Assembly (NCBI GenBank): GCA_016782445.1
Contig: JADHYM010000001.1
Location: forward strand, 10,212-74,211
Direction: 5' to 3'
DNA: 64,000 nucleotides
Origin: Candidatus Omnitrophota bacterium
GTDB lineage: Bacteria; Omnitrophota; Gorgyraeia; JABMRN01; RBG-13-46-9
The notes under the pieces are model-generated. The model searched no databases, had not been told where the DNA came from, and saw nothing but the letters and a program-made list of their open reading frames with translations. The position numbers and the translations under genes are program-made. Of the stretch, positions 61,653 to 64,000 are shown one piece after another; position 1 is the stretch's first letter, and each line of letters starts with the position of its first letter.

Positions 61653-64000
61653 TTAGCCGCACTTGGAATATCCGCAGGAGCGACACACCATGCATCCTTC
61701 TACATGCCAGAGCGCCCCTCCGCAATCAGGGCATACGCCTACTATGTTGCCTGTTTTCTTTTTAGTGGCTACGGCAGTCGAGCCCGTGGACACAGGGGGG
61801 CTTGAGGTGTTCTCTTTTTCAGGAAGAGGCTTTTCTTCTTTACGGGTTTTACCGAGGAGCCTTTGCTCCACGACACGCGCTATCGCGTCGGAACATGAAA
61901 AAATCCTCCCGCCTTTTTCCCAGCTCGGAGACGGGCAACGTATTCCCCTTAGCTGCTCTATGACGGATTTTATCTCGATGCCACTTCGCAGGGCGAGCGA
62001 AAGTAACCTACCAATCGCCTCAAGCTGCGACATTGCGCAGCCGCCTGCTTTTCCCATCTGCATGAAAACCTCAAAAGGATGCTGTTCCTCATCCTCGTTT
62101 ATCGTGACGTAAAGGTTCCCGCATCCGGTGGCTATTTTTGTCGTAGTGCCGGATATGACAGAAGGCCGGGGCCGCGGAATTATTTTTTGCGAGTCTTTTC
62201 TCGGCTCTCCGTCTTTCGTCTTTTCTTTTTTCTCTATGTTCAGTACCTGCTCGGCCCTGGAGCCGTCCCTGTAGACGGTTACGCCCTTACATCCAAGTTC
62301 GTGCGCCAGCATATAAGTATTTTCGATATCCTCTTTTTTTGTGGAATTGGCGAAATTTATTGTCTTGGAAACAGCATTATCCGTATACTTTTGAAACGCT
62401 GCCTGTATTCTTATGTGCCACTCGGGAGTAATGTCATGCGAGGTAACAAAAAGTTTCCTTACGTCTTCCGGAACTTCCTTTAGCTCCTGGATGTTGCCTT
62501 TTTTAGCTATTTTTTTAAGAAGCTCTTCGCTCCAGAAGCCCCTGTCTTTCGCTATTTTCTCAAACTGTTCGTTGACCTCCGGCAGCTTATCCTTATCCAT
62601 TACTTCTTTATAATACATTATGGCAAAAAGCGGCTCGATGCCGCTTGAGCACCCGGCGATTATGCTTAAAGTTCCCGTGGGCGCTATGGTAGTCACTGTG
62701 GCGTTTCTGAACCTGGATCCGTTTCTCTCACTGTATATGCTCTTTTCAAAATTGGGAAAAACGCCGCGTGTCTCGGCGAGCTCAGATGAAACTTTTCTCG
62801 CCTCTTTCAGTATGAACGCCATCAGCTTATCCGCAGTTCTTACAGCCTCTTCCGAATTATAGGCTATGCCGAGGTCTATCAGCATATCCGCGAATCCCAT
62901 TACTCCCAGTCCGATCTTGCGGTTGGCCCTGGTAATTTTTTCGATCTCTGGGAGCGGAAACCGGTTCATGTCGATGACGTTATCCAGAAAATGGACCGCG
63001 CCCCTTGTCGCCCGTGCAAGCTTTTCCCAGTCGATTTTCCCGCCGGTAATCATTCTGGAAAGATTTATGCTGCCCAGATTACAACTTTCATATGGTAACA
63101 AAACTTGTTCACCGCATTGGTGAGTAACCATCCCGTTAACAACCATGGAATGCGTAAAGGGTTCGGTAAGATCAAAAACCGGCTTCACGCCGTTATATTT
63201 TATTGAGCGTATTTCGTCAAAAAACTTCTCTTCGTAGAATCGAGTAAATTTAATGTTATCTAATTTGCTTTTTTTGTCATTATTGATAAAATTGATTTTC
63301 TTTCTGAATCTCTCGCGGCTGGCTCCGAATATACACAGCTCATACAGTACGCCATCGCTCATATAACTTTTTAGCTTACCCGACTTATCAAGATATTTAA
63401 AAAGCCTCTTTCTTGCCTTGCGGCTTCTGTCATAGATACTGCTTTTAATACCCATGTTCAGCAATAAGAGCTGAACCCCTTGAAGCAATTTTTTACTTTT
63501 GGAGGTTAGCGCTACCCATTCGCTATTGGGTTTTGGATTGCTTCTAACAGTTCCGTCTGCCGAAAAAAGCGCCTGGAGAAATCCTGTAACCGCTTCTTCC
63601 GGAGCCGTAAACAAGGTTTCTGGCACTTCTTTGTCATTCGCACCTTTTATTTTAACGCCCAGTTTTTTGAAGAAATCCACAACCTGCCTACTGCCATACG
63701 CCAGATGAAAGACCTCTCTCTCCCGCATGATTCCTTCTACCTCGTATCCGCACATTCTGTTGAGAATCGGTTTTAAATAATCCAGTATTTCCCTGTCGTC
63801 TCTTCCGAAAGAAAAAGCCACGCACGCATGATTGTCATCCCTTATCCACCCGTCTCCGATAAGCCATCCTAAAATATGTCCCAGTTCTTTTGACCATTCG
63901 CATGGGAAATTAAATTTATAAACCCTTCCGTTTCTGCCTTTAATTTCATTGGAAACGCTAAAGGGTAATTCTTTATTTTTGTTAAATCTTCCACTCGCGC
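61653..64000 (-). CDS. nrdJ: class II (adenosylcobalamin-dependent) ribonucleotide reductase NrdJ, intein-containing; 5' end beyond window
   Basis: C-extein begins [19 protein letters not shown] (thiyl-radical active-site region) and ends with a Cys4 zinc ribbon. Upstream of the CGEQ lies an intein. Confidence 0.85.
   Translation of the reverse strand, partial: [781 protein letters not shown]
63117..64000 (-). mobile_element. intein with LAGLIDADG homing-endonuclease domain inserted in nrdJ (N-terminal junction outside window)
   Basis: Intein C-terminal blocks F/G read [21 protein letters not shown], followed directly by the extein +1 Cys. LAGLIDADG motifs are [10 protein letters not shown] (translated from 63840-63870) and [12 protein letters not shown]. 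Confidence 0.75.

Follow-up and report, generated by a model that had tools for sequence, protein, structure and literature searches.

Inteins that end in glutamine have been characterised since 2004, and the TNP|C site (the bar marking the insertion point) has already been described as the most frequent intein insertion point of ribonucleotide reductases (RNR). A C-terminal Gln is atypical but functional among inteins generally (PMC4031507), and Gln-terminal inteins splice by the standard four-step pathway, with cyclisation of the Gln as step 3 (PMC4031507, PMC8175363). Such splicing has been experimentally shown for the PolII inteins of Pyrococcus abyssi (Pab) and of P. horikoshii (Pho) (PMC8175363, PMC4031507), and in these two inteins, as in the PolII intein of Methanoculleus, splicing is slow with Gln and quicker with Asn (PMC4031507, PMC8175363). 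The RNR (RIR1) intein of Chilo iridescent virus (CIV) is reported to splice better with its native Gln than with Asn (PMC4031507, citing Amitai et al. 2004). The present study concerns a Gln-ending intein in nrdJ, the gene of a class II, B12-dependent RNR, at the end of a 64,000-nucleotide stretch of DNA from Candidatus Omnitrophota bacterium (contig JADHYM010000001.1); this whole stretch is called the window below.

The gene holds two inteins, and the one that the window reaches, intein 2, is very probably an intein of class 1 that has a LAGLIDADG homing endonuclease nested in it, lies between Pro and the thiyl-radical Cys (TNP|CGEQ) and would splice through cyclisation of its terminal Gln. 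The observations that carry this reading are the sequence anatomy, the exact junctions, the contiguity of the extein, the HINT fold modelled for a relative, a wide and patchy distribution, and the conservation of the endonuclease domain.

The nrdJ gene and the anatomy of intein 2

Translation of the minus strand over window positions 61653-63998 gave a single open frame, 781 codons long and closed by a stop codon, which is the 3' part of nrdJ (61653..64000, minus strand) and runs off the window end. The upstream DNA was recovered through an exact-sequence look-up of the neighbouring gene for a YchF-like GTPase (60573-61586, minus strand), which led to six contigs; exact-match DNA searches with the window end found no match among genome contigs or metagenome contigs. 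The missing N-terminal part of intein 2 and the N-extein were taken from L001, a metagenome contig identical to the window over the overlap. Read from L001:5159-9934, the full nrdJ has 1591 codons and reaches window-equivalent position 66428, and its frame is unbroken across 4776 nt with both inteins inside. The first 294 codons of the window portion encode the C-terminal three quarters of intein 2 (63117..64000, minus strand; 294 of 412 residues). Beyond the window lie its first 118 residues, with Cys1 and blocks A and B (equivalent positions 64001-64352), and the whole N-extein.

The gene proved to be a class II nrdJ, as an initial annotation made from the letters of the window had proposed. 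In the window portion, Pfam matches were LAGLIDADG_3 (1e-21) in the first part and Ribonuc_red_lgC (1.4e-79) and TSCPD (1.2e-23) in the rest, and the full 1591-aa protein matched PF02867 (2.5e-136), PF00317, TSCPD and LAGLIDADG_3 (PF14528, 1.5e-35). The Intein_splicing family matched the whole protein, both inteins included, at 2.8e-29, its best stretch (aa 732-1103) falling within intein 2. The RNR barrel is present, together with the radical-Cys loop TNPCGE and the pair of redox Cys residues; the best match in the Protein Data Bank (PDB) is the B12-dependent RNR of Thermotoga maritima (1xje), and the top homologues bear the annotation vitamin B12-dependent RNR.

Intein 2 is 412 aa long and reads ESTNP|CVTGDALVST...THQ|CGEQ. 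Block A begins with Cys1, which is Cys693 of the full protein, and the N-terminal intein profile TIGR01445 (intein_Nterm) matches with 39.6 bits (cut-off 24.5). The TxxH motif of block B is present in GYELIATQDH as Thr90 and His93 of the intein, and among 117 aligned relatives this Thr is kept in 116 (one has Ser) and the His in all 117. Block F (63144..63179, minus strand) contains Asp394 and His401, and Met403 replaces the usual aromatic residue. Block G (63117..63143, minus strand) departs from the His-Asn end, keeping the penultimate His411 (CAC) and closing with Gln412 (CAA, 63117-63119); since Gln is a documented functional substitute at the intein C-terminus (PMC4031507), this non-Asn end leaves the membership among inteins standing.

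Over their overlaps with the last 8 kb of the window, the trmE repeat array excepted, the six independent assemblies match it at 100% identity (99.98% for L003), and the four that reach the junction (L001, L002, L004 and L006) carry the same terminal Gln codon. Because the assemblies agree and a change from Asn (AAY) to Gln (CAR) takes two base changes, the Gln is no sequencing artefact. The initial annotation had read the insert as a two-motif LAGLIDADG intein that ends in His-Gln before the radical cysteine, and had named the absence of blocks A and B at the N-terminal end as the sign of a lineage-specific domain. Both blocks, and with them the N-terminal splice junction, were found once the upstream sequence was read from L001, and the remaining parts of that description agree with the anatomy given here. 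A lineage-specific domain was ruled out by blocks A, B, F and G, by the exact boundaries, and by the lack of any insert in 104 of the 120 closest homologues; taken together with the accord of six assemblies and the two substitutions needed, this makes it extremely improbable that the insert is such a domain or the Gln an assembly error.

Cys+1 (TGC, 63114..63116, minus strand) is the first C-extein residue, and the window's THQCGE aligns with T319-N-P-C322-G-E of T. maritima NrdJ, so that Cys+1 is the equivalent of Cys322. In that enzyme, Cys322 serves as the thiyl-radical site, and the redox pair is formed by Cys134 and Cys333. When both inteins were spliced out in silico, a 762-aa extein was obtained that aligned with 1xje at E = 7.4e-125 and free of gaps at both junctions, LSACFVLPIEDS standing against LSAC134FVVPVGDS and the TNPCGEQ region against STNPC322GEIGLSDYEAC333NLGS, which confirmed the proposed insertion point. 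Each nrdJ intein directly precedes a catalytic cysteine that would double as its +1 nucleophile. An alternative register of the junction, in which the intein would start with Val and end with Cys, was rejected, as Gly is unable to act as a +1 nucleophile. In intein-free Omnitrophota nrdJ such as P0184, the junction DNA would read ...ACNAAYCCN|TGYGGNGARCAR.... Following Cys+1, the C-extein stretch that opens with CGEQ is succeeded by 470 more residues, and the rest of the C-extein (61656..63113, minus strand) comprises the second half of the RNR barrel, the TSCPD domain and, at the C-terminus, a zinc-finger tail of the form CxxC...CxxC (61656-61733). The locus should be annotated as one 1591-codon nrdJ with two inteins that yields a 762-aa mature enzyme, and not as a fused or novel multidomain protein.

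The fold of the splicing domain was examined on P0224, a relative of the intein 2 lineage, in which a 175-aa mini-intein occupies the TNP|C site, the endonuclease domain is cleanly lost, the HQ end is kept and the NrdJ is otherwise intact. Its AlphaFold model has a pLDDT of 73.6 overall and near 90 in the core. The top Foldseek matches of the model are solved inteins (Ssp DnaB at E = 6.5e-12), with target-normalised TM-scores of 0.81-0.90, and it also matches NrdJ-1 (rank 17) and the Pab PolII intein (rank 34, 19% identity). With this mini-intein as a stand-in for the intein 2 lineage, the predicted structure has the HINT fold.

We also considered that the intein is defective and nrdJ is decaying, with another reductase supplying the deoxyribonucleotides, as might be suspected from the non-canonical terminal residue and from a 1591-aa precursor that must finish two splicing events. 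The unbroken 4776-nt frame, the integrity of all other catalytic residues, an extein that keeps all active-site motifs and shares 75% identity with intein-free homologues, the four junction-covering assemblies that are 100% identical over the window overlap, and the HQ end kept across phyla and in the mini-intein make such decay very unlikely.

As the intein interrupts the TNPCGEQ active site, splicing is needed for an active reductase. Under the proposed mechanism, an N-S acyl shift at Cys1 (step 1) would be followed by transfer of the N-extein onto Cys+1 (step 2). Gln412 would then cyclise to an aminoglutarimide, where Asn would form a succinimide, aided by His411 and the block-F His401, and the intein would be released (step 3); finally, an S-N shift would rebuild the TNPCGEQ active site (step 4). 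In the Pho PolII intein, a distance of 3.4 A separates the block-F His and the terminal Gln (PMC8229266). At the DNA level, the endonuclease domain would spread the element into intein-free nrdJ alleles. Splicing, Gln cyclisation and cutting by the endonuclease are thus predicted activities of intein 2.

Several points weigh against this reading of intein 2. The C-terminal intein profile TIGR01443 (intein_Cterm) gives a weak match of 17.8 bits (cut-off 15.6), compared with 39 bits for intein 1, because the end departs from the Asn consensus. The argument that nrdJ must splice comes from conservation, and both splicing and endonuclease cleavage of this protein are predicted from sequence. Some Gln-terminal inteins splice slowly and improve after a Gln-to-Asn change (PMC4031507). 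Finally, the intein is present in all six assemblies, and no allele without it was observed in this population.

Terminal residues and block F in the intein family

To place the Gln end among its relatives, two samples were used. An exhaustive HMMER search with the intein of the window returned 5835 proteins at E <= 0.001, and the best 150 of the representatives of 50%-identity clusters were taken, of which 131 had a readable C-terminal junction; these end in Asn (97), Gln (21), Asp (12) and Glu (1). In a scan of one genome per species, 342 loci encode a relative, and among the best 80, of which 78 were parsed (L054 wrongly), the terminal residue is Asp in 29, Asn in 28 and Gln in 19. The Gln end is accordingly not rare within this intein family, at about 16-24%, and Asp ends make up about 9-37%. 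The initial annotation had called a terminal Gln rare, which holds for inteins generally (PMC4031507) but fails for the family of intein 2 (about 16% of clusters and 19 of 78 loci).

The 19 Gln-ending loci belong to both Bacteria and Archaea, and include the cultured Thermoanaerobacterium thermosulfurigenes DSM 2229 and T. saccharolyticum NTOU1 as well as metagenome-assembled genomes (MAGs) of Nitrospirae, Caldisericota, Omnitrophota, Tissierellia, Woesearchaeota and Nanoarchaeota. On a rough neighbour-joining (NJ) tree with long branches, the Gln ends are scattered over about 10 parsimony changes, a count that is indicative only, and their penultimate residues vary (HQ, AQ, GQ, PQ and TQ).

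The Gln ends are accompanied by a difference in block F. Two residues after the block-F His (His+2), I, L, M or V is found in all 27 distinct Gln-ending C-termini; of the 107 that end in Asn, 85 have F, Y or W at this position (Fisher p = 3e-15, with no correction for shared ancestry). Among the genome loci, His+2 is Met in 19 of 19 Gln-ending inteins, and Phe or Tyr in all 57 correctly parsed Asn- or Asp-ending ones. At 66% identity, P0228 is the closest full-length relative; its THSF...VIQN corresponds to THSM...VTHQ of the window, and the unrelated Gln-ending Pab and Pho PolII inteins read YH(N/T)V...THQ, with Val at the equivalent position. The contrast is weak in the second large clade, where L, V or I already occupies His+2 in the Asn-ending neighbours. 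The change at His+2 may represent an accommodation of the longer Gln side chain.

The Asp-ending members differ in another way, as their block-F His is replaced, by Leu in 14 of 14 distinct protein C-termini and by Leu, Tyr or Lys in the genome loci, and their penultimate residue is hydrophobic in 42 of 43 cases, the exception being L015 (SRD). Asp-ending inteins at the TNP|C site (among L007-L086; P0010, P0037-P0057, P0195 and P0239) mostly read ...SLD|CGEQ, occur in Omnitrophota, Heimdallarchaeota and Woesearchaeota, and match the Asn-ending ones in frequency among the closest loci (29 of 78). Tentatively, these patterns suggest that the terminal residue at the RNR radical-Cys site is plastic (Asn, Gln, Asp and once Glu), each residue with its own active-site signature.

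This range of ends bears on how the C-terminal cleavage is achieved. As inteins at this insertion site can end in N, Q, D and even E, the chemistry there may be permissive, and the legend of a mechanism figure states that "other mechanisms are possible" for Glu, Gln or Asp ends (PMC4031507); cleavage could then proceed by direct hydrolysis or neighbour-assisted attack, as has been discussed for the Asp-terminal RNR intein of C. hydrogenoformans. However, the residues that would assist cyclisation, His411 and His401, are both kept in the window, and across the distinct Gln-ending C-termini the block-F His is kept in 26 of 27 and the penultimate His in 17 of 27, whereas the Asp-ending members replace both. 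Gln cyclisation is moreover accepted for the Pab and Pho PolII inteins (PMC8175363). Based on this evidence, we consider a different cleavage route unlikely for intein 2, and cyclisation of Gln412 remains the preferred reading.

A further question is whether the Gln end is an adapted state, and not a neutral or mildly defective one, with an active site remodelled by Met, Ile or Val in place of the block-F aromatic residue, in which a slow or conditional step 3 would tune the output of the reductase, for example by temperature or by redox through Cys1 and Cys+1. The His+2 covariation in 27 C-termini and 19 loci, the contrast with P0228, the Val of the PolII inteins and the scattered Gln ends are consistent with this view, and in the Pab PolII intein a Cys1-Cys+1 disulfide gates splicing (PMC8175363). 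Against it stand the lack of correction for shared ancestry in the covariation, the crude, long-branched NJ tree, the L, V or I already present in Asn-ending neighbours of the second large clade, and the fact that no RNR intein of this type is known to have a regulatory phenotype. We therefore regard such an adaptation as conceivable but somewhat doubtful. If the couplings are truly compensatory, Gln cyclisation would be adapted and repeatedly evolved rather than decayed, and the intein of the window would be a natural template to dissect or engineer splicing step 3. The family also offers a natural set of variants for testing how C-terminal cleavage is tuned and a possible source of inteins with a slow or conditional step 3.

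Endonuclease domains, hosts and surrounding features

The endonuclease domain of intein 2 contains two LAGLIDADG motifs, the first at 63843..63872 and the second at 63546..63581 (both minus strand), and the acidic Asp is retained in each, in line with the two-motif domain of the initial annotation. The motif FLQ(A/G)LF(S/T)(A/S)DG is present in seven of eight relatives checked, and sequence matches were found to the intein endonucleases PI-PkoII and PI-PfuI. Identity was compared domain by domain rather than as the ratio of nonsynonymous to synonymous substitution rates (dN/dS), since the closest relative is 66% identical and synonymous sites are saturated. The endonuclease domain equals or exceeds the splicing domain in conservation in seven of the eight relatives (52-76% versus 43-62% identity), the exception being the Asp-ending L007 (48%).

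The 120 closest NrdJ proteins are 66-75% identical to that of the window, and the named ones all come from Omnitrophota/Omnitrophica MAGs. Besides the 104 that are intein-free, 16 carry a single intein, distributed over four sites (after extein residues 117, 164, 275 and 286), and eight of these inteins are at TNP|C; the site of intein 1 is not occupied in any of the 120. This patchy occurrence among close hosts fits mobility. The GC content of the two inteins (38.1% and 41.5%) is below that of the extein (47.9%). Patchy spread, low GC content and endonuclease conservation together would fit a mobile element whose endonuclease is under present or recent selection.

The closest relative, P0228, appears as a mosaic when compared with intein 2, its endonuclease being 76% identical and both HINT parts only about 55%. 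By an alignment judged by eye, the HINT domain of the mini-intein P0224 looks closer to intein 2 than that of P0228 does. The mosaic pattern of P0228 suggests domain-level recombination between inteins at the TNP|C site.

Intein 1 of nrdJ lies outside the window (L001:5435-6685, window-equivalent 64902-66152). It is 417 aa long, contains LAGLIDADG motifs and has a canonical His-Asn end, and its junctions, QLSA|CFVKGQ...GVAVHN|CFVLP, place it immediately ahead of the Cys that corresponds to T. maritima Cys134. A four-Cys stretch, CKRAKNNRCNGFVKKYCLKTPEEYKDDC, lies in its N-terminal HINT part and is also found in the Anaerolineae relative P0034.

The initial annotation had also pointed to a free-standing LAGLIDADG gene as a sign of active or recent homing in this genome. 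The gene is real, being a two-motif open reading frame (ORF) at 45931-46596 on the plus strand (PF14528, 4.5e-8) that starts 26 nt after a tRNA-Leu(CAA) gene (45819-45905). BLASTP comparison with the two intein endonuclease domains gave no significant similarity (E = 0.26 and 0.15), and a role as copy or source of an intein endonuclease was rejected, the resemblance being at family level only. As this ORF has no significant similarity to either intein endonuclease, three or more independent LAGLIDADG elements reside in the genome. The free-standing ORF thus gives no evidence on the activity of the intein and alone does not show current homing.

Other features of the region were noted in passing. 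Heptanucleotide tandem repeats occur within essential genes, namely trmE/mnmE (58318-58458) and leuS (43350-43385 and 44220-44252), and also at 30467-30501. The trmE repeat, TCTGTCT x20, encodes RQKTEDG/R heptapeptides, and the length of the array varies between the window and the assemblies L001, L002, L003 and L005. Between the nrdJ stop codon and the YchF-like gene, window positions 61590-61650 contain a short heptamer-like run (TTCTCAG TTCTCAG TTCATAG ...) that resembles the intragenic heptamer arrays. Upstream of nrdJ, a 64-aa ORF (L001:4826-5020) carries a precomputed label as MamI, of a magnetosome family, which was not confirmed, as hmmscan against Pfam-A gave no match at E <= 0.01.

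Comparison with known inteins

The closest described systems are the RNR inteins that lie before the thiyl-radical Cys (the RIR1/NrdA/NrdJ allelic site of InBase and Pietrokovski's database). They share with intein 2 the insertion point, (S/T)N(P/L)|C...|C(G/S)E, and the architecture, in which a LAGLIDADG endonuclease is nested in a HINT domain, and the TNP|C-type site is occupied in both class II (CGEQ, CGEI, CSEY) and class I-like (SNL|C...|CSEI) hosts. The intein of the window differs from them in its Gln instead of Asn end, in its uncultured Omnitrophota host, and in the presence of a second intein at SA|CFVLP.

The NrdJ-1 split intein (PDB 8UBS) is likewise an NrdJ intein beside the radical cysteine, and the P0224 model agrees with it in HINT fold; unlike intein 2, it is split, lies one residue further C-terminal (PMC2677866), ends in Asn and has a free-standing endonuclease. 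The CIV RNR intein differs in belonging to a eukaryotic virus and to a class I RNR.

At the C-terminal end, the best parallels are the Pab and Pho PolII inteins (PDB 2LCJ, 5BKH and 7OEC), which also have Thr-His-Gln followed by Cys+1, a Cys1, the block-F His and an aliphatic His+2 (Val). They differ in their unrelated host protein, in being mini-inteins without an endonuclease, and in their origin from hyperthermophilic archaea. As the similarity to the PolII inteins is at fold level only, the Gln end of the window's intein is of independent origin. The Gln end is an already known variant, and a single case adds little to intein biology; the constant aliphatic residue at His+2 in the Gln-ending members is possibly the point at which this family extends what has been described for the known systems.

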